Below are positions 9,455 through 35,773 of a DNA stretch of 64,000 nt, piece by piece. A program made the position numbers and the translations under genes. The first letter of the stretch is position 1. The number at the start of each line of letters is the position of its first letter. The notes beneath the pieces were generated by a model, which worked only from the letters and a program-made list of their open reading frames with translations, searched no databases and was not told where the DNA came from. Source of the DNA: Candidatus Hydrogenedentota bacterium (GTDB taxonomy: Bacteria; Hydrogenedentota; Hydrogenedentia; Hydrogenedentales; SLHB01); contig CAXXTH010000008.1 of assembly GCA_963668025.2 (NCBI GenBank), positions 1 through 64,000 of the forward strand, given 5' to 3'.

Positions 9455-10612
9455 CTAAATTCCCAGTAAACGTAGAAGGTATTCGGGGTCGAGTGCAGCA
9501 GCGAAGCGCTTGCCCCTGAGGAAATCTTTGTTGGTCTTGTCTTTCTTGAGGAGGTTGAGTGTAATTCTCCTCAAGGAGGCGAGATTCTGGGCGGCGTTTC
9601 TTGTTCGGGCGCGGTTGTCGTCTTCGCGAAAGATAATGTCTAGGCACCAGTGCAAATTGTTTTCCACGCCCCAGTGTCCACGCACGGCGTGGGCGAATCG
9701 TCGTGCGTCGAGGGGCAGGCTGCTCAAGTAGTAGCGCCGCTCGATGGTGTTCTTCCCTTTTTCCTTGCGGATGGACTCGACCATGCCGAAACTCTTGAGG
9801 CCCTTCCAAAGTCCTTTGTCCTCGAACCAGCCCAAGTCGGTGGATTGCCAGTATCGGCGGGTTTCGATGCGGCCATGCCCCTTGTCGATGGTCTGGTGGA
9901 AATCCATCCGTGTGGCGTCGGCTGTTGGCGCGCACTGGGTGGCGCAAGGGGGAACGGCGTCCTTGAAAAAGGCCTTCACTTCTTCTAGGGCGGTGGCGTG
10001 GTTGCCTTTGAGGGCCAGCACGTAGTCGGCCTGCCGTTGGATAATGTGGGAGGCGATATCCTTCTGGCAGCCCATGGCGTCCAGGGTGACGATGGCTCCC
10101 TTGAGCTTTAAGGCGTTGAGGAGTTTGGGGACGGCGGTGATTTCGTTGGATTTCTCGTCCACCTTGACCTGCCCCAGCGCCAGGCCGTGCTCGCAAGCCC
10201 ATGCGCTGACGATGTAGGGGATGGCCTCCCCCTGATTCAAGGCGCGCCGCAGGGCTTTGCCGTCAATGGCGACGACCTCATCGCTTAGATTGGGGCAAAT
10301 GCCCTGCACCCATTGGCCGAAGCATTCCAGAAAGGCATGGGGGTCGAGGGCGGAAAAGACCCGGTTGAAGGTGTCGTGCGAGGGGATGCCGCCGGGCAAT
10401 TCCAGGAAGCCCTTCAGCCAATCCTCCCGGAGCCAGCCGAAGCGCTCCATATCCGAAAAGCTCTCCCCGCCCACGAGGGCTGAGCATAGCCCAATCATCA
10501 AGATGTCAATGAAGTTGTGCCTGCGGGTCCGGTCCATGCGGGGATCAGGCAGGCCCGCGAAACACTCGATAATAGGCTTGGGCTTGGGCAGGGATTTCTT
10601 TTCAGCGGTCAT
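9455..10612 (-). CDS. ISAs1-family DDE transposase
   Basis: DPR, GIPSHDTF, AIDGK, KSNEITA, DAMGCQK, KGN, HGRIETR, HWGVENNLHW motifs. Confidence 0.97.
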   Translation of the reverse strand: MTAEKKSLPKPKPIIECFAGLPDPRMDRTRRHNFIDILMIGLCSALVGGESFSDMERFGWLREDWLKGFLELPGGIPSHDTFNRVFSALDPHAFLECFGQWVQGICPNLSDEVVAIDGKALRRALNQGEAIPYIVSAWACEHGLALGQVKVDEKSNEITAVPKLLNALKLKGAIVTLDAMGCQKDIASHIIQRQADYVLALKGNHATALEEVKAFFKDAVPPCATQCAPTADATRMDFHQTIDKGHGRIETRRYWQSTDLGWFEDKGLWKGLKSFGMVESIRKEKGKNTIERRYYLSSLPLDARRFAHAVRGHWGVENNLHWCLDIIFREDDNRARTRNAAQNLASLRRITLNLLKKDKTNKDFLRGKRFAAALDPEYLLRLLGI

Positions 10613-13033: not shown

Positions 13034-14227
13034 ATGAAAGATCCCAGAACTAACGGCAGCGATGAATCCAGCATTTTGGTTCCCGAAGCAGACAGCCTTA
13101 AGTCACTACAAGACAAGCCCTTCAAGACCGCGCTGGAAGAACTCAGGCAACTACTCTCACAGAGAAGACGCGCTTTTCTATTTGGAGCGGGATGCAGTAA
13201 ATGTGCTGGTCTTCCTCTAATGTTTGAGCTAACAGAAAAGATTAGGGAAAAGCTTAGAAGTGCTCCGGAATCTAGTGGGATTCTTGAGAAAATCATCGCC
13301 CAGTTTGCTGGGTCACCTCGCCAGAATATCGAAGACTACATGAGCGAATTGGTGGACCTTATTGCAATTTGTGAGCGTCGCTCCAATCGACAAGCTAGTC
13401 AGGACTCGGTTTCGATCGATGGCAACAAGTATGAATGTGCAACTCTTCTAGGTGAATATGCATTGATAAAAAAGTTAATTGGTGAATGCATTTCAACAGC
13501 AAACACGAATATAGATCATCATAGGTTATTCGTAAGAACCATTCATAATGTGCTTCGTTCCGGAAAAGCAGGACCGCATTCTGCCGTAGACTATTTTTCG
13601 CTGAACTACGATACCCTTGTGGAAGACGCACTTGCTCTCGAAAGGGTGACTTATGCTGATGGGTTTGAAGGGGGTGCGACAGGTTGGTGGAACCTAAGCA
13701 CTCTTGAAGATAAGAGTGTCGATGCGCGCGTTCTCAAGCTACATGGTGGAATTGACTGGCGACTTCTGAAAGAAGACCCTTTGCCACGCCGGATCCGAAA
13801 AGACCTGCTAGTGCCTGATGAAGCTGATCCTGTCCTGATCTGGCCAGCGGCCACAAAATATCGAGAAACACAGCGCGATCCCTACGCACAACTTATTGCG
13901 GTCTTAAGGCAAGCTTTGCGACCTAGCGGAGATCTGGGAGTTGTGCTTGCTATAATTGGGTATTCATTTGGTGATGCTCACATCAATGCTGAAGTAGAAT
14001 CTGCTCTCAAAGATTCGCATGAAAGGCTTACATGCGTCGTTTTCACCGAAGAGGAATATCCAACAGGTGAACTTGGTCGCTGGACTCAAGATCCCGCCAT
14101 GAAACAACAAATCCGAGTATATGCAAGAAAAGGCTGTTTTCATGGCGACAACACACATAAGAGTGAATCTGATTTGCCTTGGTGGAAGTTTGAAGTGTTA
14201 ACAAGACTTCTGGGAGGCGAGCGATGA
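13034..14227 (+). CDS. SIR2-family protein (NADase effector of Sir2-HerA defence)
   Basis: FLFGAGCS, SLNYDTLVE, LKLHGG, IGYSFGDAHIN motifs; ATGA overlap with herA. Confidence 0.92.
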   Translation: MKDPRTNGSDESSILVPEADSLKSLQDKPFKTALEELRQLLSQRRRAFLFGAGCSKCAGLPLMFELTEKIREKLRSAPESSGILEKIIAQFAGSPRQNIEDYMSELVDLIAICERRSNRQASQDSVSIDGNKYECATLLGEYALIKKLIGECISTANTNIDHHRLFVRTIHNVLRSGKAGPHSAVDYFSLNYDTLVEDALALERVTYADGFEGGATGWWNLSTLEDKSVDARVLKLHGGIDWRLLKEDPLPRRIRKDLLVPDEADPVLIWPAATKYRETQRDPYAQLIAVLRQALRPSGDLGVVLAIIGYSFGDAHINAEVESALKDSHERLTCVVFTEEEYPTGELGRWTQDPAMKQQIRVYARKGCFHGDNTHKSESDLPWWKFEVLTRLLGGER

Positions 14228-16059
14228 GCATGCGTCACCACAATCCAACTGACCCTATCGAGAATCTCAGGATAGGAACGCTTCTTGAAGTTGATGGTAC
14301 GCATATTATAGCGGAACTCGACAGTGGTATATCTGAACTTACCCGTGTTCATGGTGGTATCATCTATCCCATCGGACAATTCGGTTCCGTAATAAAAATC
14401 CACTTCGGACACGTCCAGATCTTCGGATATGTCAGTCGCCTCCGTATGAAAGCAGAGTATGAACGCGAAAAGGGAATTGTGTCGTCAGAGTCAGAATCCG
14501 AGCGAGTTATTGAGGCTGATTTGTTCGGCGAAGGAAGATGGGTTATAGATGGTAGCAGCAACTCTGGATGGAACCTTGAATTTGACCGTGGCGTTTCCAC
14601 ATTCCCGCTCCCACAACAGCGAATTTACCTAACTCCCAGAACTGAGTTGCAGTTCATTTTTGGTGCAGGTGGAAACGCCGCCATCCATATCGGGGAACAC
14701 GTCGGTTCTGGTGGTACGCCTGCCTATGCAGATATGAATGAACTACTTGGAAAGCATACTGCTATTCTGGGATCTACGGGATCTGGCAAATCAGGTGCCG
14801 TGGCGGCGCTCTTACACAGTATCTGTGATAGAGGGAATGAACTAAACCTTAAAAAGTGGAATCCTCGTATTGTTGTTCTTGACCCTCATAACGAGTATGG
14901 CAACGCTTTTTCCGACTGTTGCCGGATCGCCACAGACGAAGGTTCGCTTATTCTACCTTATTGGCTATTGAATTTTGATGAGACACTGGCACTTATCGTG
15001 GGAAAAACCGAGTTTGTAGCAACTTCACAATCCAATATCGTGAAGAACGCCTTATTGGCAGCACGGCGTGATGGAGCTAAGAAGCTAGATTTCTCTGAGG
15101 AGGAGATCGCCGCAATAACTGTGGATTCACCTATTCCCTATTCCTTAGGAAGCACAGACGGATTTGACGATTTTGGCTCAAAAAGCGGTGGGGGAGAGAG
15201 ATATACGTAACGTAGTCGGCCTGGTTGGGGCCATAAATAGCCAAAGACCTACTTGGTAATAATCGTTTCACAACACGAAGAATATAACAAGGTTATTCGT
15301 AAGCTCGACACTCTGAAGAAAGATGCCAGGCTTTCTTTTATGATGAAGGAATGGTGTGGTGATGCAGATGAATTGCGTTTGGTTATAGCTCAATTCATGA
15401 ATAATTCCCACCGCGTAACAGTTGTTGATCTCTCCGGTGTACCAAATGAAGTGGCAGGTGCCGCAAGCTCGTCGATCGCGCGATTACTTTTCTCGGTCAA
15501 GCTCTGGCAAACTAATGAAGAAAGGAAGCGCTCTCCGATACTCTTGGTCTGTGAGGAGGCGCATCGTTACGTACCGGAGAAAGGTGAAGCACAGTACGCA
15601 GCGGCACAGGAGGCCATTCAGCGTTTGGCAAAGGAGGGCAGAAAATACGGTATAGGCCTCCTACTCGTCTCCCAGAGGCCTAGTGAGGTAGATGCAACAG
15701 TCCTATCACAATGCAATTCCTGGATGGTTTTGCGGATAACGAACGACCGGGACCGCGATCAGGTTCGTTCGGTGCTGCCCGATTCCCTTGCTGGACTAAC
15801 CAAGGTTCTTTCGGGTCTGCGACGCAGAGAAGCCATCTTCGTAGGACAGGCGACGTTGCTGCCATCTCGTGTGCTTATTAGAGAATTAACCGATAGCCAG
15901 CTACCACGATCACACGATATAGATTTTGCTGCAGGATGGCAAAACGATCCCGTTAGCGATGAAGAACTTACGAGGAATGCTCAATCGTGGCGCTTACAAA
16001 GACGTGAATCATCAATAGGTCAAGCAGAACAGCCGCAACAAACCAAAACAGATACCTGA
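14224..16059 (+). CDS. herA: HerA/FtsK-family ATPase; reading frame disturbed at 15190-15270
   Basis: HAS-barrel N-terminus, GSTGSGKS, DPHNEY, CEEAH, EGRKYG, SQRPSE. The two ORFs are in the same frame and are bridged if three single extra bases are removed. Confidence 0.88.
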
Positions 16060-16538: not shown

Positions 16539-17734
16539 GTACCCCGTAAGTCCTAAAAGGCTGAATAAAAAAGTGTATCTTGCCGATATATCCAGAGGGA
16601 GGAATGGGTCTTTCCTTTGGAGGATAACGGCAATGCCCACAAAGCGATACGTGGTTCGGTTGACAGAAGAGGAGCGCCAGCAACTCCATGGCTTGGTAAG
16701 CAAGGGCAAGGCGGCGGCATACAAAATCAGGCACGCCAACATCCTGCTCAAGGCGGATTGCGACGGGCCGAATTGGAAGGACGAACAGATAGCCGAAGCC
16801 TTTGGCTGCCACCGCACCACGGTGGAAGAGGTGCGCAAGCGGCTGGTTACGCAAGGCATCGAATCCGCCCTGGGCCGCAAGAAGCGGGAAACGCCGCCGA
16901 CCCCGCGCCGACTCGACGGCGACGCCGAAGCCCGGCTGGTTGCCATCGCCTGCGGAAAAGCTCCGGAAGGCCGGGCGAAATGGACCATGCGGCTCTTGGC
17001 GGACAAACTGGTGGAATTGGGGATCGTGGATTCGGTCTCGCACACGACCGTCTGGGAGACGCTTAAAAAAACGAACTCAAGCCGCACTTGCGGAAATGCT
17101 GGTGATACCGCCGAAGCAGGATGGCGAGTTCGTGGCGGCGATGGAAGACGTACTTGAAGTCTATAAGCGCGGCCGGAACCGAGAGTATCCGCTGGTGTGC
17201 ATGGACGAACAACCGACGCAGCTCTTGAAGGAGACGCGAACGCCCTTGCCCGCCGAACCTGGGGAACCGGCGAAACACGACTACGAATACGAGCGCAATG
17301 GCACAGCGGCGAACTTCATGTTCACCGCGCCATTGGAAAACTGGCGGCGGGTGAGTGTGCGGGAGCGCAAGACGAAAATCGATTGGGCACAGGAAATCCG
17401 CCAGCTTGTCGATACGGATTTTCCCGAGGCGTCAAAGATCGTGCTGGTGATGGACAACCTGAACACGCACACGCCGGGGGCGCTATACGAGGCGTTTGCG
17501 CCGCAAGAGGCGCGCCGAATTCTGGAGCGGCGGGAGATTCATTACACGCCGAAGCACGGGAGTTGGCTGAACATGGCGGAGATCGAGTTGAGCGTGTTCA
17601 CACGACAGTGCCTGGACCGGCGCATGCCGGATCTGGCGACGTTGCGTTCGGAGGCGGTTGCGTGGAACGCGAGCCGGAACGATTCGGGGATAGGTGTGGA
17701 TTGGCACTTCACAACCTCCGACGCCCGGGTAAAA

Positions 17735-18399
17735 GTAAAAAACCACGCCCAGAGGACGTGGCTTTGCTTTGGCCACTCAGAGAGTGGCTGAGTGCTTGCA
17801 CCCAAAGGATGCAAGCGTGGGTTGTGTTCCGCAACACCGCTTGGTTCAGTACTTCAGTGTTAGCTGTTCATCGTGACGTTCCGCTTCTTCCTGGAGCATC
17901 ACGTACTTGCGAATCATTTCTTCGTTAAGCCCCACGGTATCCACGCAATATCCAGGCGCCCAGAAATGATTGCCCCAATAGGGCTTCTTTTTCAAATGCG
18001 GAAACTGCTTGAATATCCGGATTGCCGTACGCCCCTTCAAAATGCCCGCCAGATCCGATATCGACACCTTTGGCGGAACCATCACAAGCAAATGCACGTG
18101 CTCAGGCTGTACATTCAATTCGAGCACCTCGCATCTTTGCTGCCCACAGAACATTTGGATACAGGTGTAGACCTCCTTGCCCACCGGTCCCGTCAAAACC
18201 TGGTAGCGGTATTTGGGCACCCATACCATGTGATATTGGCAATACCATATCGCATGTGATAATTTGCGGAAACGACTCATTGGCATCTCCTTCCTTGGTG
18301 TTGCGGAACAACACGAGTGTAGGGGATGCCGATGGGCTCAAACAGGCTGAGCCACAGGCCCTATGACCACGTCCAAAGGACGTGGGTTTCTAGGTCGCA
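17735..18399 (-). mobile_element. IS200/IS605-family element, copy 2 (665 bp)
   Basis: Near-identical to copy 1, again 3' of TTAG; removing it restores the IS630 frame. Confidence 0.95.
17846..18286 (-). CDS. tnpA: IS200/IS605 Y1 transposase
   Basis: 146 aa with a few substitutions relative to 11782-12222. Confidence 0.95.
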   Translation of the reverse strand: MPMSRFRKLSHAIWYCQYHMVWVPKYRYQVLTGPVGKEVYTCIQMFCGQQRCEVLELNVQPEHVHLLVMVPPKVSISDLAGILKGRTAIRIFKQFPHLKKKPYWGNHFWAPGYCVDTVGLNEEMIRKYVMLQEEAERHDEQLTLKY

Positions 18400-18493: not shown

Positions 18494-19474
18494 ATGGCGG
18501 CAAATGGGCGAATTCCGACCATTCACATAATCGCTGAATCGATCCCTCAAGCGTATTTCCGCGCGATGAAAGCCGTGTGGGAACAGGGTCTGGCCATTCG
18601 CACGGAATATGACCGCAAAAACAGTGCTGGGGAATATATTGATCCGCCGAGCCGGGATGCTCGAGTGCTGATCGAAGTGCTCGATCCGTTCGCCCAGCCA
18701 AGGTATCCCGCCCTATCTTTCTGTGAAATCGGCACGTATATCGCTGAAATCATGGGCGCTAAAGACCATCTCGTGGTGCCCATCGAGCAGCTTAAAGAAG
18801 CCCTTACTGGCGAATTAACCGCTAAAGAGTGGCCATATACCTACCATCAGCGCTTGTTCAACCATCCTTCACTGGATGGCTCCGTGGTGAACCAGATGGA
18901 AAAGGCCATCGAGCGGGTGGCGCGCACACCCTATACCCGCCGGGCCATGGCCACTACCGCTGAACCCAACATTGATGTCTATCTTAAAGAAGATGTGCCT
19001 TGCCTGCGGGAAATGCAACTGCGGTGTCCCGAAGATGGAGAAGGCGGCCTTGTGCTTAATCTGAGCACGACATGGCGTTCGCGCGATCTCTTCAAGGCAT
19101 GGGCGGACAATGTGATTGCGATTACCTTTATGCAGAGCCGCATCGCCCGCGAAATCAGCAAACGCTCGGGCGGGCGTCCGGTGCATGTGGGCAGCTATGC
19201 CGATTACAGCATGGCCATGCATATATACGGGCAGGATTTCGGGGCGGTGGGCGGCGATACCGAACGGGGCTTGCAGAGTTTCTTCGATACATTTGATGAA
19301 GAAGCCTTCATCGCCCGCTCGCTCACGAGCGAGCAAGCGCGGGAAATGCTCGTGCTGCCCCAGCTCGAAGGTTTGTTGAGCGAACGCAGCATCGAGCAAT
19401 GGCGTTTCCCCGATTCGGCCATCGCGTTGCTGCAGGAGCTCGTCGAGGATATTAAAGCCAGTGAGTGGGTTTGA
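18494..19474 (+). CDS. thyA: Thymidylate synthase-fold protein (archaeal-type ThyA-like)
   Basis: YTYHQRL, NQ, RRA, catalytic PCL, WRSRD, Asn in WADN, HIY motifs. Confidence 0.75.
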   Translation: MAANGRIPTIHIIAESIPQAYFRAMKAVWEQGLAIRTEYDRKNSAGEYIDPPSRDARVLIEVLDPFAQPRYPALSFCEIGTYIAEIMGAKDHLVVPIEQLKEALTGELTAKEWPYTYHQRLFNHPSLDGSVVNQMEKAIERVARTPYTRRAMATTAEPNIDVYLKEDVPCLREMQLRCPEDGEGGLVLNLSTTWRSRDLFKAWADNVIAITFMQSRIAREISKRSGGRPVHVGSYADYSMAMHIYGQDFGAVGGDTERGLQSFFDTFDEEAFIARSLTSEQAREMLVLPQLEGLLSERSIEQWRFPDSAIALLQELVEDIKASEWV

Positions 19475-20521: not shown

Positions 20522-22177
20522 ATGGAAAAGCGGCCTAAATACGTGTTTGTCACTGGCGGAGTCGTGTCGTCCGTGGGGAAAGGCGTCGTAGCGGCCAGCC
20601 TGGGGCTCCTGCTCGAATCGCGCGGCCTTACCGTGGCCATGATGAAGCTGGATCCCTATATCAATGTCGACCCCGGCACCATGAATCCCTACGAACACGG
20701 TGAAGTCTTCGTGACCGACGACGGCGCGGAGACTGACCTTGATTTAGGCCATTATCAGCGCTTCACCCACTCCAAGCTCTCACAGAAGAGCAATGTGACC
20801 ACGGGCGGCATTTATAATGCCGTCATCCAGAAGGAACGGCGCGGCGAATATTTGGGCAAAACGGTTCAAGTCATTCCGCACATCACCGACGAGATCAAAT
20901 CACGCATCCGCATGTTGACCGCCGAGCCGGAAGACGAGACGGATGTGGCTATTATTGAAATCGGCGGCACGGTGGGCGACATCGAGAGCCAGCCGTTCCT
21001 TGAAGCCATCCGCCAGTTCTACCTCGATATCGCCCCGACGCCTTGCTGCTTCATCCATGTGACGTTGCTGCCTTACATCGCAGCGGCGGGTGAACTAAAG
21101 ACCAAGCCCACGCAGCATAGCGTCCGCGCCTTGCGCGATATTGGCATATCGCCGAATGTCATTGTCTGCCGCACGGGCAGCGAGAAAGTGGGGCCGGGCC
21201 AGCGCGCCAAGATCGCCATGTTCTGTAATGTGACCAATGACGCCATCATTGGCGCGGAAGACATTTCACCGCTCTACGCCATTCCGCTGAACTTCCACAA
21301 GCAAGGACTGGATACGATTGTCATGAAAGTATTGGACTTGCCAGCCAAAGAAGCCGATTTGGCCCAGTGGGAAGCCATGCTCGATAAAATGCGGAAGCCA
21401 TCCAGGGAGGTGCGGGTGGCCGCCGTGGGCAAATATATCGCCCACGATGATGCGTACAAAAGCATCAACGAAGCGTTCGCCCATGCGGGCATTGCCAATG
21501 ATTGCCGCGTGAAACTGGAATGGGTCGATTCGGAGCAGTTCGAGAATGGCGTCGTGCCAGCGGAAAAGCTCAAGGATTACGATGCGGTGCTCATCGGGCC
21601 CGGATTTGGCCTGCGAGGTATCGAGGGGAAGGTCAAGACCGTTCAATATGTGCGCGAAAGCAAGAAACCTTTTTTGGGCATTTGCTTGGGCATGCAGATC
21701 GCCGTTATCGAATTATGCCGCAATCTCCTGGGCCGCCATGAAGCCAACAGCACCGAGTTCAACACCAACACGCCTGATCCAGTCATCTCGCTATTGACCG
21801 AACAGCAAGGCATCAAGGATATGGGCGGCACCATGCGGCTGGGCGCATACCGTTGCGTGCTCAAACCGGGTACGAAAGCCCAGCAAGCCTATGATACGGA
21901 TGTCATCAGCGAACGCCACCGCCATCGCTATGAGTTCAACAATCTCTACCGGGAAGGGTTGGAAGAGAAGGCGGGCCTCGTGGTGAGCGGCGTCCACCCC
22001 CGCAGCGATCATGAACTCGTCGAGATCATCGAGCTTAAAGACCATCCATGGTTCTGCGCTTCCCAGTTCCATCCTGAGTTTAAGAGCACGCCGCTCAATC
22101 CCCAGCCGCTTTTCCGCGCGCTCATCAAGGCGGCCATCGAGTGCCAGGATGCCAGGCGCAAGGATGCCATCGGCTAG
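20522..22177 (+). CDS. pyrG: CTP synthase
   Basis: FVTGGVVSSVGKG, DPYINVDPGTM, KTKPTQHSV, GICLGMQ, QFHPEF. Confidence 0.99.
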   Translation: MEKRPKYVFVTGGVVSSVGKGVVAASLGLLLESRGLTVAMMKLDPYINVDPGTMNPYEHGEVFVTDDGAETDLDLGHYQRFTHSKLSQKSNVTTGGIYNAVIQKERRGEYLGKTVQVIPHITDEIKSRIRMLTAEPEDETDVAIIEIGGTVGDIESQPFLEAIRQFYLDIAPTPCCFIHVTLLPYIAAAGELKTKPTQHSVRALRDIGISPNVIVCRTGSEKVGPGQRAKIAMFCNVTNDAIIGAEDISPLYAIPLNFHKQGLDTIVMKVLDLPAKEADLAQWEAMLDKMRKPSREVRVAAVGKYIAHDDAYKSINEAFAHAGIANDCRVKLEWVDSEQFENGVVPAEKLKDYDAVLIGPGFGLRGIEGKVKTVQYVRESKKPFLGICLGMQIAVIELCRNLLGRHEANSTEFNTNTPDPVISLLTEQQGIKDMGGTMRLGAYRCVLKPGTKAQQAYDTDVISERHRHRYEFNNLYREGLEEKAGLVVSGVHPRSDHELVEIIELKDHPWFCASQFHPEFKSTPLNPQPLFRALIKAAIECQDARRKDAIG

Positions 22178-22376
22178 CGCTGCTCAAGCCCAGCGTATAA
22201 CATACAGAAGAATTCCAACACGTTATGTTCGTGGTGGCCGCCGTGTGCCAAATCTGGAACACGACGGCCACGGTGATACTTCTTCATGTGAAGTGGTGCT
22301 GTATTCGTTGTTTCATCCAGCGCGAGTTTGCTTTCGGGCAAGCCCATTTGGGCAGGCTCTCCGTTAGCGTTTGGTT

Positions 22377-23567
22377 TCAACCAGGCACTCCTACTGTTCG
22401 CACGTGGGCGAAAGCTGTCGAGCGCAGGCTCCCTACCGCCTGGGGCAAGATGGCCAGAAACCTTCGCACTTCGGCCTCCGTATTGAAGCGGCCCAGCGTG
22501 ATGCGCAACGAGCCGCGCGCGCGAATCGGATCATATCCCATCGCCGTAAGCACATGGGACGGCTGCCCGGCATGGCTGGCGCTGCATGCACTGCCCGATG
22601 AGATGCAAAAACCTTCCGCGTCCAATGCCAACAGAAGCTTAATGGCTTCGCCTTCCAGGCCCGAAAATCCCAAGCAGATATGGCCCGGCAAACGCTGGTA
22701 GCGGTGGCCAATCAAATACGCATTTGGAATGGTTTCGGAAATGGTATCAATGATGTGATCCCTCAGCCGTACTAAGCGGGCCGCTTCCTCAGCCATTTCT
22801 TCCCGGGCGATTTGAGCGGCGCAGCCCGCGCCCACTATTCCAGCCACGTTCTCCGTGGCGGAACGCAAGCCAAACTCCTGCCCGCCGCCATGAATCAGAG
22901 GCATGATGGGCGCGCCTTGCCGGATGTACAACGCACCCACGCCCTTGGGGCCATGGAATTTGTGCGCGGATAGCGACAGCAAATCAAAAGAATGCCGTTC
23001 CGCATCGAGCGGGATCCTGCCAGCCATTTGTACGGCATCCGTGTGAAACAACGCTCCATGCGCATGCGCGACCCGGGCCAGCTCCAGAATGGGCTGAAGC
23101 GTTCCGGCTACGTTATTCGCCGCCATGACGGACACCAGGCGTGTGGCGGGTTTCATCACCTGGGCCAATGCGTCCGGGCTGGCGACGCCATCCCGCCCAA
23201 CTGGCAGGAAAGTGGCCTCCACGCCATGCCGTTGCAAGTAGCGGCAGGTTTCCAGTATAGCCGGATGTTCAATGGCGCTCGTTATAATATGGCAATCACC
23301 CCATCCAAAAGACTCCGCCACGCCGAGCAGCGCCAGATTGTCTGACTCGGTCCCGCTTCCCGTGAAGACGATCTCCTCCGGTTTCGCGTTCAGCAATTCC
23401 GCGATCTGCCCCCGCGCGCGGTCCACGGCCGCCTTTGCCTCACGTCCGGCGGAATGCAGGCTGGAAGGATTGCCAAATGCGCCAGCCAGAAAGGGCCGCA
23501 TGGCCTCGGCGGCGCGGGGCTCCATAGGCGTTGTCGCGGAGTTATCAAAATAGATGCCATCGTGCAT
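22377..23567 (-). CDS. iscS: Class I (IscS/NifS-type) cysteine desulfurase
   Basis: YFDNSATT, GNPSS, HTDAVQ, PLP site SAHKFHGPKG, catalytic SSGSAC. Confidence 0.93.
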   Translation of the reverse strand: MHDGIYFDNSATTPMEPRAAEAMRPFLAGAFGNPSSLHSAGREAKAAVDRARGQIAELLNAKPEEIVFTGSGTESDNLALLGVAESFGWGDCHIITSAIEHPAILETCRYLQRHGVEATFLPVGRDGVASPDALAQVMKPATRLVSVMAANNVAGTLQPILELARVAHAHGALFHTDAVQMAGRIPLDAERHSFDLLSLSAHKFHGPKGVGALYIRQGAPIMPLIHGGGQEFGLRSATENVAGIVGAGCAAQIAREEMAEEAARLVRLRDHIIDTISETIPNAYLIGHRYQRLPGHICLGFSGLEGEAIKLLLALDAEGFCISSGSACSASHAGQPSHVLTAMGYDPIRARGSLRITLGRFNTEAEVRRFLAILPQAVGSLRSTAFAHVRTVGVPG

Positions 23568-23575
23568 ATGCGCGC

Positions 23576-24295
23576 CTATCCTATGAATAGTCCTTCGAGG
23601 CGGATCTGATAGCCTTCGGGTATCCGGTTGAGATAATTGACAAGGCCGCTATGCCGCCATTGAAGCATGCACATACGGGGCTGGAAGAAATACCGCATGC
23701 CAATACGCAGTTCACATTGCGTACGTTTCACCAATCCTTCGTATGCCTCGGCGATGTAATAGCCGATGTCTTTATACCCGTTTGCGCGCGGGCCTAACGG
23801 GCCGGTGACGCACCACGTGAGCACGCCCGTGCGCGCATCCACGGCTGTCACTACGCCGCAATGCGTGATGGGACACCCGCACGACATGCCCAGCGGACGG
23901 CCAATGAGCGTATCGCCCACGGCAATATCCATTTCACGCGTGATCATGGGATTGTGGGGAATGATCACTTCACGCGGGCCTGGATCTTCCGGGAAGTGTT
24001 CGAGATAAAAATCAATGTCGCGCCCAAGGCTATCCACCCAGTCTCCCGCCAAGGCGGTGCTGGAAGCCGCGCTGGGAGCAGCGCACGAGGCGCATGAGGC
24101 ATGGGTATTACCCGCACACGGCGATGCGGCTGGCGCCGCCGCCGCAGTGGATGTTACACGGCTTTCCGAAAGGTGGATGCATCGCTTGGCCATTTCTGGA
24201 TGCTCCGGCAACTGCGCCGCCAAATCCGTACATTTCCGAAAACCGCAGACGCCGCAATTTAGCCCTGGAAGCTCAATACATACTGCTTCACTCAT
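23576..24295 (-). CDS. Fe-S cluster-binding protein (LPxxNCGxCG...C...C N-terminal domain)
   Basis: LPGLNCGVCGFRKC...C; further SCGCPITHC and CMLQWRH motifs. Confidence 0.85.
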   Translation of the reverse strand: MSEAVCIELPGLNCGVCGFRKCTDLAAQLPEHPEMAKRCIHLSESRVTSTAAAAPAASPCAGNTHASCASCAAPSAASSTALAGDWVDSLGRDIDFYLEHFPEDPGPREVIIPHNPMITREMDIAVGDTLIGRPLGMSCGCPITHCGVVTAVDARTGVLTWCVTGPLGPRANGYKDIGYYIAEAYEGLVKRTQCELRIGMRYFFQPRMCMLQWRHSGLVNYLNRIPEGYQIRLEGLFIG

Positions 24296-24298
24296 GGA

Positions 24299-25000
24299 TC
24301 ACTCTCCTCGGTAAAAGTTCTGGTTTTCCAGCGCCCGCACGACGCCAAAGTGCGATTGCCAGCCGATTTCTTTTTTGCCCACGCAAATGGTGCATGTCCC
24401 CACGGGCGGATTGCCGCGCAGCATCAACTGCTCCGGCACATCAGGAGTCTGAAGGACATGGTCCACAAGCGGGTCAATGCCTATGCCATACAAGGCATTT
24501 GCTTCCCGCACGCGTACGTCCGGGGCCGCCTCCAAAATGCGCGCGCGAAACACTTCGCGCTCCGCCTGGGACACCAGATCGATTTTAGTGACAACGGCGA
24601 TGTCGGCAAGTGACAGCATAGGCCCGACTTTCCGGGGAAGATTCATGCCGCTGGTCGCTTCCATGACCATAATCCCAAGCCCGCCATCCACATACGGGGC
24701 GCAACGGAGGCAAAGCCCGGCTGTTTCCACCAGCAGGATATCGGAACTGGTCTCCTCCGCCCATTTCAGCGCATCGCCCAATACAAGCACGCTACAGTGA
24801 TCCGGGCACAGTTCTCCCGAGTAGATTTTTTTGGTGGGTATTTCGAACTCTTGTGCAAACAGTTCGTCTTCATCCGCGTACTGCACGTCAATCTTCAAAA
24901 AAGCGAGATGGCGGCCAGCCGCAATCAGTTTGCGCGCCATATGGCGCAACACGGATGTCTTGCCCGTCGTAGCCGGGCCTGCGCAAATCACGAGTTTCAT
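24299..25000 (-). CDS. HypB/UreG-like (G3E) metal-binding GTPase
   Basis: GPATTGKT, LCPDH, ETAGLCLRCAP, TKID (G4), C-terminal CTIC. Confidence 0.88.
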   Translation of the reverse strand: MKLVICAGPATTGKTSVLRHMARKLIAAGRHLAFLKIDVQYADEDELFAQEFEIPTKKIYSGELCPDHCSVLVLGDALKWAEETSSDILLVETAGLCLRCAPYVDGGLGIMVMEATSGMNLPRKVGPMLSLADIAVVTKIDLVSQAEREVFRARILEAAPDVRVREANALYGIGIDPLVDHVLQTPDVPEQLMLRGNPPVGTCTICVGKKEIGWQSHFGVVRALENQNFYRGE

Positions 25001-25815
25001 GTGGACGCTCCTTCCGAAATGGCTCTAAACGCTTCTAAACCCGCGAAATCCTTGTTCTCCAAGCAGCCGCCCATGCGGAGCGTATCCCGTAGATGCGAAA
25101 GCATGTCATCGAGCTTGCTCACGGTTAACGCCAACCGGCGCTCCGCGGCGTCGGTATGGATCACCTTGGTGATGCATCCCCCCTGCATGACAATGCGGAA
25201 ATCCGACAACAGCGCGATGCGCGGATCATGCGTCACAAAAATGAAAATCTTGCGGTATTGGCGGAGCAGCTCGAGCGCCCGCGTGCGATGAATGCCCGCA
25301 TTTTCCACTTCGTCCAACAGCACAATGGGAGTGTTGCAGATGATGGTGGCGTCGGCGATAAGCAGCGCGCGGGTCTGTCCGCCGGAAAGCTCGGTCATCC
25401 GGTTATCCAGGATGATGGGCTCGCCCGTCAACTGGTTGGCGAACGCCAGCGTTTGCGCCACCAACGAGTCCACTTGCGAACCATCCAAGCTGCGAATCCG
25501 CGCGTGAATGCTCAAGAAAACTCGCACCGGCAGATCCGAGAGGAAATTCGTGTGCTGCGTGATCAAGGCAATGGGATTCATCGCGGGATCGTCACGGTAA
25601 ATGCTGGGCGGGCGCTCCCCATTGATCAGCACCCTGCGGCCGGTCGGCGTGTCTCCATTGGCGAACAGCTCAATATCGTTGATGAGCGTGGTTTTTCCGG
25701 AGCCTGTCGGGCCGACAATGCTCACCACGTCGCCCATCTTCAAGTCAATGCGCTGAACCAGCTCAGCGGCATGGGCCTTGCCGTTGCCTCCAAGAATAGT
25801 AATCGTGTCAATCAT
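24997..25815 (-). CDS. ABC-type ATPase with no adjacent permease
   Basis: GPTGSGKT, LSGGQ signature, VLLDEVE, VTHD; overlaps the GTPase start. Confidence 0.9.
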   Translation of the reverse strand: MIDTITILGGNGKAHAAELVQRIDLKMGDVVSIVGPTGSGKTTLINDIELFANGDTPTGRRVLINGERPPSIYRDDPAMNPIALITQHTNFLSDLPVRVFLSIHARIRSLDGSQVDSLVAQTLAFANQLTGEPIILDNRMTELSGGQTRALLIADATIICNTPIVLLDEVENAGIHRTRALELLRQYRKIFIFVTHDPRIALLSDFRIVMQGGCITKVIHTDAAERRLALTVSKLDDMLSHLRDTLRMGGCLENKDFAGLEAFRAISEGAST

Positions 25816-25884
25816 AGAATACTTTTCCTCCTTGTTATATTTAGCAAATCGTTTTTGTCTGCTAAATGGGCAAAAAAAAGCTAC

Positions 25885-26286
25885 TTACAGCACATCCGCC
25901 AGCGTGGTATTTTCCAGTTTATTCGCGACAAAATCGCGTATCTCCCGAAACACATTCAAGAGGCCTTCTTCCTTCTCAATCGGCGTCGATTCATAGAAAT
26001 ACTTGCTTACCGATTCCGTTGGGGCTAATGCGCCATCCAGAAGGCGGACCACTTCGGCCAAGCAGATCTCTTCGGGCCGCCGCGCAAGGCGATATCCCCC
26101 ATGCTGGCCTTTGGAACTATGCACATAATGCGCCCGCTTCAACGCAAGCAGAATCTGTTGCAGGAACTTGGGCGGAATGCCTTGTTCTTGCGCGATAGCC
26201 TCGCCGCTTATTGCTTCGTCCGACTCATTCCGAGCCAAACAAAGCAGAGCAAGCAGCGCATATTCGCTACGGCTTGTCAGTTTCAT
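25885..26286 (-). CDS. Rrf2-family regulator (CymR-like, lacking Fe-S Cys ligands)
   Basis: YALLAL, IP.KFLQQIL, S.KG..GGY.L; C-terminal region lacks the IscR Cys triad. Confidence 0.92.
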   Translation of the reverse strand: MKLTSRSEYALLALLCLARNESDEAISGEAIAQEQGIPPKFLQQILLALKRAHYVHSSKGQHGGYRLARRPEEICLAEVVRLLDGALAPTESVSKYFYESTPIEKEEGLLNVFREIRDFVANKLENTTLADVL

Positions 26287-26507
26287 ATCACCAAACCAAA
26301 CTTTCCCGGTAGACTAAGTATCATATCATCCAGAAAAATGCAACTCTTTTATGCGGGGCAAGAACAATAACGGTCAGATAGGATAAATCCGTATACTGTT
26401 CTTAGAACAGGAGGATTTCGAGCTAACGAAACACCAAACGCATTATGTGAAAATGGGTTTATCTATACCGTGATACCATGATATTAACGGATTTTCGATT
26501 CATTTTC

Positions 26508-26536
26508 TTGACTTCTTCCTAGGGCTTTTCCATAAT
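26508..26536 (+). promoter_or_regulatory. Sigma70-type promoter TTGACT-N17-CATAAT
   Basis: Consensus spacing; AGAGGAG RBS before ATG 26587. Confidence 0.55.
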
Positions 26537-27277
26537 CATAAGTAGCTGGCTTTTCATTCGTTAAACAACTAAGAGGAGTTTCAGCAATGCTCAAGATGGT
26601 CTTGTTGGTTTTGAGTATCACCTCCGCCACCGAAGGGCTACAGCTCCACGATCTTCTTCAACAGGCGGGCGCAAGGAGCTTGGCGGCATCTTCAGGAGAA
26701 TTCCAGACCACTGTTGCGGGATATGTATATCCCGGTACTACTGAAGAGTCGAATTATAATTCCGCCCATAACGACTTCGAGTCTGCCCTGAATAGTATCG
26801 CTAAAACAGCTCAGCCTGGGATGCCACCAGATGACATGGAGCAAGTTTTTGGCAAGTTTGACGCGGAACACTGGCTGCCTCTTTATCGACGCTCGGAGTC
26901 AATCGTTTACCGTGAAGACCTTTTTCGGTACTCCCAGAGTATTTCGCGCGAAAGCCTCGATTACACAATAAGAACTCAGGCCGGATCCCCAATGGACTGG
27001 AAGATACAAAGGTTTTCCCCAATTGAAAGAAGAAATATCGTCATCGACGATATCCCCACCGAAGTGGCCTTCGATGGCTCGTTCCAGTACAGTGTTATGG
27101 GCAAAGAGCTTCGAGTTACTCATCCCGGCTCACTTAGCGCACAATACAGGATCTCCGCCCTAGACATGTCAATGTACAGGAGGGATCAGATCCCCGAGGA
27201 AAGCTATGTCAGGAAAGATCAGGAGCTAATATATAAGCAACTGGACGATGATACGTATCTTTACAGGGCTTACGCAT

Positions 27278-28435
27278 CTAAATTCCCAGTAAACGTAGAA
27301 GGTATTCGGGGTCGAGTGCAGCAGCGAAGCGCTTGCCCCTGAGGAAATCTTTGTTGGTCTTGTCTTTCTTGAGGAGGTTGAGTGTAATTCTCCTCAAGGA
27401 GGCGAGATTCTGGGCGGCGTTTCTTGTTCGGGCGCGGTTGTCGTCTTCGCGAAAGATAATGTCTAGGCACCAGTGCAAATTGTTTTCCACGCCCCAGTGT
27501 CCACGCACGGCGTGGGCGAATCGTCGTGCGTCGAGGGGCAGGCTGCTCAAGTAGTAGCGCCGCTCGATGGTGTTCTTCCCTTTTTCCTTGCGGATGGACT
27601 CGACCATGCCGAAACTCTTGAGGCCCTTCCAAAGTCCTTTGTCCTCGAACCAGCCCAAGTCGGTGGATTGCCAGTATCGGCGGGTTTCGATGCGGCCATG
27701 CCCCTTGTCGATGGTCTGGTGGAAATCCATCCGTGTGGCGTCGGCTGTTGGCGCGCACTGGGTGGCGCAAGGGGGAACGGCGTCCTTGAAAAAGGCCTTC
27801 ACTTCTTCTAGGGCGGTGGCGTGGTTGCCTTTGAGGGCCAGCACGTAGTCGGCCTGCCGTTGGATAATGTGGGAGGCGATATCCTTCTGGCAGCCCATGG
27901 CGTCCAGGGTGACGATGGCTCCCTTGAGCTTTAAGGCGTTGAGGAGTTTGGGGACGGCGGTGATTTCGTTGGATTTCTCGTCCACCTTGACCTGCCCCAG
28001 CGCCAGGCCGTGCTCGCAAGCCCATGCGCTGACGATGTAGGGGATGGCCTCCCCCTGATTCAAGGCGCGCCGCAGGGCTTTGCCGTCAATGGCGGCGACC
28101 TCATCGCTCAGATTGGGGCAAATGCCCTACACCCATTGGCCGAAGCACTCCAGGAAGGCATGGGGGTCGAGGGCGGAAAAGACCCGGTTGAAGGTGTCGT
28201 GCGAGGGGATGCCGCCGGGCAATTCCAGGAAGCCCTTCAGCCAATCCTCCCGGAGCCAGCCGAAGCGCTCCATATCCGAAAAGCTCTCCCCGCCCACGAG
28301 GGCTGAGCATAGCCCAATCATCAAGATGTCAATGAAGTTGTGCCTGCGGGTCCGGTCCATGCGGGGATCAGGCAGGCCCGCGAAACACTCGATAATAGGC
28401 TTGGGCTTGGGCAGGGATTTCTTTTCAGCGGTCAT
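27278..28435 (-). pseudogene. ISAs1 transposase with premature stop
   Basis: CAG>TAG at 28127-28129 relative to copy 1. Confidence 0.9.
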
Positions 28436-35119: not shown

Positions 35120-35773
35120 ATGAAACCATACAATCCAATTAGTTTCAAAGTCAGTGCGTGTAACTGTCCTTTTTGTGGAGCTTATTCCGCTCAGCATTGG
35201 TTAGGTGCCACATCGACAGAGCTAAAAAATAAAAGTTATCTAGGTAAAAGTCCATTCATATTTTCGTTCTGTGAACATTGCCGAAAGCAGACTGTCTGGT
35301 TAGAGGGCAAAATGGTATATCCTTTCAGCGGATCTGCACCTTTACCTAATGCAGATATGCCGCATGATATGAGGGAAGACTTTGAAGAGGCAAGAAACAT
35401 CGTAGAACACTCCCCAAGAGGCGCGATGGCATTGCTGAGATTGGCAGTTCAGAAGTTTTGTATACACCTTGGAGAGAATGGCAAGAATATTAATACAGAT
35501 ATTGGGAAACTTGTCGCAAAGGGCTTGCCAGGGAAAATGCAGCAAGCTCTAGACAGTGTCCGAGTGATAGGGAATAACGCTGTTCATCCCGGCCAGATAG
35601 ATTTAAAGGATGATAGGGAAAGTGCATACAAACTGTTTGGGTTCATAAATATTATGGTTGATATTCTTATAACACAGCCCAAAAGCATTGATGAATTCTA
35701 TGACCTGAAGATTCCGCCGAATCAAAAAGATGCTATAGCGGAAAGAGATGGCAAGATAGAACCGAACAGTTGA
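35120..35773 (+). CDS. DUF4145 (HEPN-superfamily) protein with N-terminal Zn ribbon
   Basis: CPFC/CEHC, EA....SPRGA..LLR, RVIGNNAVHPG; AT-rich coding. Confidence 0.88.
   Translation: MKPYNPISFKVSACNCPFCGAYSAQHWLGATSTELKNKSYLGKSPFIFSFCEHCRKQTVWLEGKMVYPFSGSAPLPNADMPHDMREDFEEARNIVEHSPRGAMALLRLAVQKFCIHLGENGKNINTDIGKLVAKGLPGKMQQALDSVRVIGNNAVHPGQIDLKDDRESAYKLFGFINIMVDILITQPKSIDEFYDLKIPPNQKDAIAERDGKIEPNS

Follow-up and report, generated by a model that had tools for sequence, protein, structure and literature searches.

We analysed a 64,000-nt stretch of DNA from a Candidatus Hydrogenedentota bacterium (assembly GCA_963668025.2, contig CAXXTH010000008.1, positions 1 to 64,000; hereafter the window), in which a five-gene operon encodes a soluble ATP-binding cassette (ABC) ATPase, a cysteine-rich G3E GTPase and an Fe-S protein, preceded by an Rrf2-family regulator and followed by a cysteine desulfurase. 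The genes of the operon and its associated features are as follows:

25885-26286, minus strand: Rrf2-family regulator gene (133 amino acids)
25839-25867, no strand assigned: 8-bp perfect inverted repeat in the 69-bp Rrf2-ATPase spacer (weak candidate)
24997-25815, minus strand: ABC ATPase gene (272 amino acids)
24299-25000, minus strand: G3E GTPase gene (233 amino acids)
23576-24295, minus strand: Fe-S protein gene, COG2000-type (239 amino acids)
22377-23567, minus strand: cysteine desulfurase gene, NifS/IscS-type (396 amino acids)
22234-22271, no strand assigned: strong hairpin between the convergent pyrG and desulfurase genes (17-nt arms, 88% complementary)

All five genes at 22377-26286 are intact and read from the minus strand, sharing one orientation as an initial annotation of this DNA had claimed, and the tight packing that it described for the last four was borne out by the measured spacings, which from the Rrf2 gene to the desulfurase gene are 69 bp, a 4-bp overlap, 3 bp and 8 bp. 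The hairpin beyond the desulfurase gene (fold z -5.97, with 0 of 200 shuffles as good) is the probable end of the operon. The inverted repeat upstream of the ATPase gene had an RNA fold z of -2.0, with 9 of 200 shuffles as good. A promoter scan stayed at chance level, and Rfam gave no match within 21500-27500. A shared operator was considered and not adopted, given that a Gibbs motif built from six upstream regions of four loci placed its best site ahead of the window Rrf2 gene only 179th of 63,976. Pfam models assigned the five proteins to Rrf2, ABC ATPase (weakly), the CobW/HypB/UreG G-domain, PF04060 and aminotransferase class V, and no specific NCBIfam model reached its cut-off for the ATPase, the GTPase or the Fe-S protein. 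The initial annotation had also stated that the operon lacks a permease, a binding protein and an IscU/NifU or SufB scaffold. Transmembrane-like segments are absent from all five proteins (19-residue hydropathy peaks at 1.67), which include neither a permease nor a binding protein, and seeds for IscU, SufB, CysK and 26 further neighbour families matched nothing in the 64-kb window, where the desulfurase seed found only itself.

The central result of the comparison with other genomes is that the ABC ATPase and the G3E GTPase are an obligate genetic pair. A scan of GTDB genomes with a degenerate GTPase-motif pattern returned at least 112 loci, of which 80 (L002-L081) had flanks of up to 8 kb; neighbourhood counts refer to these 80 and leave out the 32 loci with short flanks. 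In 78 of the 80 loci no more than 2 kb separates the family ATPase from the GTPase, the other two (L002 and L053) ending at a contig edge, and in 76 the ATPase is within 450 bp of the GTPase or fused to it. Two loci, L013 and L072, carry a GTPase-ATPase fusion. The third position is variable: it is held by a COG2000-type Fe-S protein in 25 loci and by a signal-less solute-binding fold, often with DUF1858, in 46; in three loci (L035, L052 and L063) a PF04060-like four-cysteine domain is fused to the GTPase C-terminus, in one (L030) a radical SAM gene stands between two GTPase copies, and in five no third partner was seen. A tree of 77 GTPase rows, from which L002, L053, L038 and L059 were omitted as short or lacking a full ATPase, contains a branch with support of 99/89 that separates all Fe-S-domain types (clade A) from all binding-protein types (clade B). 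The initial annotation had treated the five-gene operon as the system; its ATPase-GTPase core is indeed conserved, and the third place can also be taken by partners other than the Fe-S protein. Of 26 clade-A loci, only 4 have the desulfurase in the operon and 1 has the Rrf2 gene there, and we therefore regard both as accessories added locally. L030 (4898-8311), from a Myxococcota genome and arranged as GTPase, radical SAM, second GTPase and ATPase, suggests a version of the module dedicated to one client. In L059 (Methanosarcinaceae) the GTPase is truncated and the Fe-S gene is split by apparent frameshifts, which may be an assembly error.

The module is widespread. The 80 loci span methanogenic archaea, Bacillota, Bacteroidota, Planctomycetota, Chloroflexota, Acidobacteriota, Spirochaetota, Fusobacteriota, Thermodesulfobacteriota and others, and the ATPase-GTPase-Fe-S order recurs in 25 of 80 unrelated loci, so the arrangement is not due to chance. 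The initial annotation had mentioned similar triads without assigned function in anaerobes and methanogens, in agreement with this distribution. The GTPase had 3476 relatives at E of 1e-20 or better among 4571 candidates, the closest named ones (87-88% identity) being Candidatus Hydrogenedentes. For the Fe-S protein, 3219 candidates yielded 2229 relatives, and the family is a compact one (33 clusters at E of 1e-30 or better in a 50% library). Searches of plasmids found one match for the GTPase and none for the Fe-S protein, and no GenBank phage matched the ATPase at 1e-20. One locus, L001 (NZ_CP084075.1), is filed as a Fusobacterium plasmid; at 2.1 Mb and with dnaJ-like and other chromosomal-looking genes, it is probably a chromosome.

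The initial annotation had further proposed that the three middle proteins form a complex. The predicted complex of the window ATPase (residues 1-262) with the GTPase scored 0.51, compared to 0.00 for the best of three controls, with at least 77% contact agreement between runs and a pLDDT of at least 75 for the partners. The mark used for such scores is reached by 116 of 157 solved pairs and by 2 of 215 mismatched pairs, and the range of 0.60 or less past the mark holds only 18 solved pairs and both mismatches, so that the prediction lends weak support to binding. Taken with the fusions in L013 and L072, it suggests that the ATPase likely binds the GTPase, which is the part of the proposed complex to which these data speak.

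The GTPase carries the CPDH, CLRC and CTIC motifs given in the initial annotation, at residues 65-68, 97-100 (C97 and C100) and 203-206 (C203 and C206), and this set is invariant in 77 of 77 aligned rows, which had been selected on the CxRC motif and not on CPDH or the C-terminal CxxC. C97 and C100 follow the ExxG Walker B motif, E92 is invariant, and a TKID G4 motif lies at 138. The model of the protein (pLDDT 88.1) was most similar to UreG (5xkt; Z 23.7, root-mean-square deviation 2.2 over 185 residues), followed by HypB at Z 19.0, in comparisons that barely cover residues 190-233 and leave the C-terminal CxxC outside the shared fold. CPDH aligns with the CPH site of UreG, and the H68-x31-C100 spacing fits the CHx30-34C site described for HypB. 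The features that define G3E proteins (a P-loop SIMIBI fold, the D-to-E change in G3 and a guanine-specifying G4) are all present, and by these sequence features and its predicted fold the GTPase is a G3E member of an unnamed subfamily. Its five invariant cysteines outnumber those of the single sites quoted for HypB and COG0523 in the sources accessible to us.

These likenesses bear on an alternative in which the module is a UreG/HypB-like chaperone or insertase for a single metal (Ni, Zn, Co, Fe or Mo) working with an ABC ATPase, the third protein being a metal donor or a client adaptor; sulfur genes would then adjoin the module because the client is a sulfur enzyme. In its favour are the two closest folds, the alignment of CPDH with the UreG site and the HypB-like spacing, and a conserved Cys2His2 set in the beta domain of the Fe-S protein (below) would suit a mononuclear site. 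It leaves unexplained the insertion of a desulfurase into the operon in several phyla, and no urease or hydrogenase genes were found among the annotated neighbours, only genes near the module having been scanned. We consider it unlikely, and it is the rival that we take most seriously.

The ATPase has a Walker A motif, Q87, an LSGGQ signature, a Walker B DE and a THD switch, with an atypical D-loop (DE[IV]ENAG), and its family has no conserved cysteine. Its nearest solved relatives are MacB/BceA/MJ0796/LolD-type domains, and SufC was absent from the best 60 of 133 matches. Compared directly with the SufC-like gene of L071, only 24 residues around Walker A aligned; the one of L031 was 22.5% identical over 213 residues (E 1e-4). 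Given that these nearest relatives are transporter domains, the ATPase could be an ordinary transporter subunit whose permease is encoded elsewhere, with whatever metal or sulfur compound is imported being handed to the GTPase. One locus, L070, favours this reading: the trio there is immediately followed by a gene for an ABC-type permease with 12 helices, shortly before the contig ends. In addition, L049 has CysT/CysW and clade B includes a solute-binding fold. However, co-oriented genes with at least four predicted helices lie within 4 kb in only 4 of 27 clade-A loci (the window included) and are of four different kinds, so that no conserved permease was found within that distance, as the initial annotation had anticipated. 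L049 also has its own CysA, a simple hydropathy test detected no hydrophobic N-terminal stretch in any of the 48 binding proteins of clade B, and the ATPase is fused to the GTPase in two loci. We consider a transporter subunit improbable.

In the Fe-S protein, the CxxCxxxxC..C pattern of the initial annotation corresponds to C14, C17, C22 and C39, which match PF04060. The model (pLDDT 87.2) has a beta domain at about residues 85-239, joined through a linker of low confidence to a small domain at the N-terminus. The CGCPITHC motif held up in part: across 26 rows C141 is kept in 26, P142 in 25 and H145 in 25, whereas C139 and C146 are kept in only 8, and a second conserved pair, C209 (25 rows) and H215 (24 rows), had been overlooked. 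A fold search with the whole model against 48,161 chains gave a best Z of 4.2 (root-mean-square deviation 3.0 over 67 residues), Foldseek found no match at E of 0.001 or better, and there was no solved relative by sequence. In the Atlas only the protein's own family was found (0.75-0.76), a search that skipped PF04060 gave nothing usable, and the beta domain was not detected in proteins of 420-2000 amino acids among 178 candidates, which is weak evidence. An internal repeat in the beta domain was considered, given the resemblance of its two Cys/His motifs, and rejected (profile alignment probability of the halves 0.1%, with 27 of 100 column shuffles scoring as well). JGI labels the family 'uncharacterized Fe-S cluster-containing protein', which we take to be COG2000 in view of the legend of Fig 2B in PMC12068725.

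Weak scores link the N-terminal domain of the Fe-S protein to the large subunit of the corrinoid Fe-S protein and to RnfB. This similarity, together with the low-confidence linker, would suit an ATP-driven reductive activator or persulfide reductase that makes no new clusters and in which the ATPase and GTPase force low-potential electrons through the tethered Fe-S domain, either freeing sulfide from a persulfide or driving aldehyde-to-thiol enzymes such as MMP16. MMP16 consumes 2-4 electrons in its reaction, and sulfide hides the effect of losing it (10.1101/2025.02.10.637553). The activation of methyl-coenzyme M reductase (MCR; PMC12176620) is powered by a soluble ATPase component, and type C loci carry thioredoxin, ferredoxin or HdrBC-like genes. 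On the other hand, in 46 of the 80 loci the pair is accompanied by a binding protein and PF04060 is absent, and G3E GTPases are described in the accessible literature as metal chaperones, not reductases. We judge this explanation quite unlikely.

The desulfurase was intact as claimed, retaining the pyridoxal phosphate lysine K203 and the catalytic C328 in SSGSAC (PF00266, E 2.4e-74). NifS/IscS models score best, below their cut-offs (NifS TIGR03402, 455.7 bits against 530.75). It is 62-64% identical to the desulfurases inside the cassettes of L003, L008 and L075, compared to 47-50% for the IscU-adjacent ones of L029 and L058. The Rrf2 protein (PF02082, E 5.8e-34) lacks the cysteine triad of IscR/NsrR, having only C16 and C75; its best named model was CymR NF047409 (76.9 bits against a cut-off of 195), and on these scores it is CymR-like and not a CymR member. 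It is 67% identical to the Rrf2 protein heading the same cassette, together with cysK/cysE, in L008.

The genomic context separates the two clades. Sulfur-gene seeds lie nearby in 14 of 26 clade-A and 5 of 50 clade-B loci (Fisher p 6e-5), and metal-uptake genes in 2 of 26 and 24 of 50 (Fisher 3e-4); both tests ignore kinship, and the one seed set applied to all loci came from neighbours already seen, mostly in clade A. The trio was both conserved and linked to sulfur genes, in line with what the initial annotation had expected. The sulfur links of clade A are of unrelated kinds and occur in all four of its sub-branches, comprising NifS, cysK/cysE, sulfate uptake and coenzyme M (CoM) synthesis. 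A desulfurase lies inside the operon in L003, L005, L008 and L075. The L008 locus also has two Rrf2 genes, a cystathionine beta-synthase-like gene, cysK and cysE, and in L049 the trio is inserted in a sulfate ABC operon, between sbp and cysT-cysW-cysA. MMP16, cysteate synthase, comDE or comA are nearby in 9 of 26 clade-A loci, and in methanogen loci the trio stands directly before MMP16, cysteate synthase and comDE. L059 has an O-acetylhomoserine sulfhydrylase and L076 a desulfurase-YedF as neighbours, and genes of the type expected for Fe-S clients are found in L030 (radical SAM), L063 (HdrBC-like) and L035 (ferredoxin). The SufB seed matched in 0 of 26 clade-A loci and in 3 of 50 clade-B loci, there as a separate sufCB.

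The varied sulfur neighbours, the two NTPases and the labile metal sites could also fit a switch that senses sulfur or redox state and adjusts the sulfur pathways nearby, without making a cofactor. Pfam assigns a DNA-binding, kinase or output domain to none of the three proteins, and we hold this to be the least probable of the explanations considered. The metal-uptake counts bear in both directions on the single-metal chaperone, given that clade B adjoins FecCD, TonB receptors, FeoB or ModA/ModD in 24 of 50 loci and that such neighbours occur in only 2 of 26 loci of clade A, to which the window belongs.

The sister module of clade B, found in 46 of the loci L002-L081 and in L001 (8823-11807), has an SBP_bac_6 protein, the same GTPase and a longer ATPase. 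The SBP_bac_6 protein is signal-less, is often fused to DUF1858 and has an LPC motif in 29 of 48 cases. This module is annotated like a transporter, yet is without a permease. Its neighbours include FecCD, TonB, FeoB, sufCB, a hybrid-cluster protein, a cysteine-containing Rrf2, molybdenum uptake and nitrogenase genes. Counting second ATPases next to FecCD genes by pattern overlooked many cases, and the count was not used. In L017 (6347-6589) and nine more clade-B loci, the ATPase gene is followed by a gene for an 80-residue Cys/His-rich protein (HxGC, two CxxC, TPCHA) that had no Pfam or NCBIfam match at the thresholds applied. In L004, L022, L037 and L073 the clade-B module adjoins FecCD, a binding protein, a NifH-like gene and two genes resembling nitrogenase component 1, a neighbourhood that from its gene content is a nitrogenase-like system.

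We compared the trio with systems defined in the accessible parts of PMC9164220, PMC2770081, PMC12192291 and PMC12176620. Like SMS and SUF (SmsC2B2, SufBC2D), it combines a soluble ABC ATPase with a small operon and proposed Fe-S cluster handling, and the desulfurase is optional here, SMS having none (PMC12192291). It differs in having no SufB/SmsB in the window and a G3E GTPase as partner, and the ATPase is not SufC-like and is without the C-terminal cluster cysteines described for SmsC. The NifS/IscS-type (type I) desulfurase and the Rrf2 gene heading the operon recall ISC, NIF and MIS. However, no IscU/NifU is encoded in the window, and the Fe-S protein is unrelated to IscU (E 0.39). The cassette desulfurases are without the C-terminal SPL[WY] stretch that is present in the IscU-adjacent desulfurases of L029 and L058, a stretch that presumably serves in IscU docking. 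The GTPase shares with UreG, HypB, MeaB and COG0523 its fold, the ExxG Walker B, a TKxD G4 and a Cys/His site at the UreG position. Unlike HypB (38.5 bits against a cut-off of 121.2), its C65 and H68 are not adjacent; unlike UreG (31.3 bits against 204.2), it has CPDH in place of CPH and no urease genes among its annotated neighbours; and unlike COG0523 (CobW/ZigA/Nha3), it is without CxCC, is 233 residues long and has only the G-domain Pfam PF02492. It also differs from G3E metallochaperones in combining CPDH with two more CxxC motifs and in its ABC ATPase pairing, which is absent from the review descriptions accessible to us. Component A2 of the MCR activation complex is likewise a soluble ATPase coupled to Fe-S proteins in anaerobes (PMC12176620); A2 was compared by its description only, in which it is dedicated to MCR and no G3E partner appears. 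The trio fails membership in ISC/MIS, SUF/SMS, UreG, HypB and COG0523.

We favour the reading that the module is a cytosolic, nucleotide-driven maturation module for Fe-S or sulfur cofactors, to which we assign a probability of roughly 0.5. In the simplest formulation that holds for both clades, the ATPase and GTPase would be a pair that uses NTPs to mature a metallocofactor and that can exchange its third subunit, and for clade A the cofactor is most likely an Fe-S cluster or cluster-bound sulfur. All characterised G3E GTPases work in metallocofactor assembly (PMC13202556), and SmsC/SufC are a precedent for a soluble ABC ATPase in cluster assembly (PMC12192291). We hypothesize that the ATPase docks on the GTPase rather than on a permease, that the five cysteines and the histidine of the GTPase hold an Fe-S cluster, or its iron, under the control of GTP, and that ATP-driven closure of the ATPase loads or releases this cluster. 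In this genome, the desulfurase would form a persulfide on C328, which is established chemistry for its family (PMC8918507), and hand the sulfur on to the module. Electrons that reduce this sulfur may come from the four-cysteine domain tethered to the rest of the Fe-S protein, and the Cys2His2 beta domain may be the acceptor or assembly site. Where the desulfurase is unlinked, as in most methanogens, sulfide or a distant desulfurase could serve instead. The product, a cluster or cluster-bound sulfur, would go to client Fe-S enzymes such as MMP16/ComF, and the cluster-less Rrf2 probably ties expression to cysteine status here.

Several observations weigh against this reading. Twelve of the 26 clade-A loci have no sulfur seed at all, the sulfur seed set was drawn mostly from clade-A neighbours, and most of the CoM links are contributed by methanogens that are related to one another. 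A desulfurase shares the operon in no more than 4 of 26 loci, one of which (L005) is without the Fe-S gene; the desulfurase of the window may instead feed a distant scaffold elsewhere in the genome. The ATPase is without a conserved cysteine, unlike SmsC, the beta domain has no solved relative hinting at its chemistry (48,161 chains; Foldseek E 0.001), and the score of the ATPase-GTPase complex lies in the weak range. Finally, clade B pairs the same ATPase and GTPase with a binding-protein fold near metal uptake genes (24 of 50 loci versus 2 of 26), a pattern that suits a general metal chaperone equally well. The claim of the initial annotation that the middle proteins form an ATP/GTP-driven scaffold or relay is supported in part, as to a conserved, sulfur-linked trio with fusions, weak predicted ATPase-GTPase binding and no common permease, and has to be narrowed to the ATPase and GTPase as the obligate unit. 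Its picture of a desulfurase feeding the system and of sulfur status controlling it fits the window and a few relatives only, given that the desulfurase and the Rrf2 gene are co-operonic in 4 of 26 and 1 of 26 loci, and does not extend to the system as a whole.

Elsewhere in the window, transposase genes, some of them split, lie at 9455-10612, 16573-18286 and 27278-28435, one of them about 1 kb upstream of the operon; the first matches DDE_Tnp_1, and the other two were judged from their translations. A SIR2-like gene followed by a HerA-type ATPase gene (13034-16059), the latter frame broken by two stops between 15210 and 15253, resembles what we take to be a Sir2-HerA defence pair. A DUF4145 gene (35120-35773) interrupts a Na+-NQR operon between nqrC-like and nqrD-like genes, and a divergent thymidylate synthase is encoded at 18494-19474 (best model methanogen-type TIGR03283, 101 bits against a cut-off of 175).

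The trio itself has been sighted before. The legend of Fig 2B in PMC12068725 mentions an 'ATPase, Ni2+-binding GTPase and COG2000 Fe-S protein' often colocalised with CoM biosynthesis, whose role 'remains unknown'. Judged by description and context, not by sequences, this is almost certainly the same trio. The accessible part of that account covers no bacterial desulfurase, cysK or sulfate-uptake contexts, no fusions and no sister subtype. That legend was also the only mention found of an architecture in which an ABC ATPase works on a G3E GTPase and the third subunit, itself of no solved fold, can be exchanged, in a literature search mostly outside subscription journals; no functional study of the trio was found either, in a search that lay mostly outside subscription journals and outside two classification papers that possibly cover the family, and the accessible part of 10.64898/2026.08.20.746119 does not mention it. 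What would be new is how the system as a whole is built, and any function. According to PMC13202556, a second HypB homologue, UreG-like and without a known function, occurs in most methanogens; we infer that it may belong to the present GTPase family. In Methanosarcina acetivorans, sufBC are dispensable and further factors are expected (PMC10500019); the trio is present in the Methanosarcinaceae loci L046 and L059 and is not established for M. acetivorans. Two candidates from that species were considered and not adopted: MA4556, a GTP-binding protein, is up about 10-fold under CoM starvation (PMC12068725, table S4) and is not named in the accessible main text, but it is preceded by RuBisCO and Sua5 genes and could not be tied to the trio, and neither could MA0433.

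In summary, the module is real and widespread and is in none of the tested families. It might represent a further Fe-S biogenesis system besides ISC, SUF, NIF, MIS and SMS, with an ATPase-driven, cysteine-rich G3E scaffold, a COG2000-type protein as both sulfur acceptor and electron donor, and a plug-in desulfurase where sulfur comes from cysteine, a proposal that we regard as doubtful and advance tentatively. Three questions left open in the literature may converge on this module: what the trio does beside CoM genes (PMC12068725), what the second, UreG-like GTPase of most methanogens does (PMC13202556) and which Fe-S biogenesis factors are missing for Methanosarcina (PMC10500019). The window version carries its own desulfurase and regulator, and it thus offers a four-protein system for a direct test of cluster or sulfur transfer. 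If the proposal is true, the new biogenesis system could account for the 'additional factors' left after the deletion of sufBC in M. acetivorans (PMC10500019) and could supply sulfur or a cluster to coenzyme M synthase.

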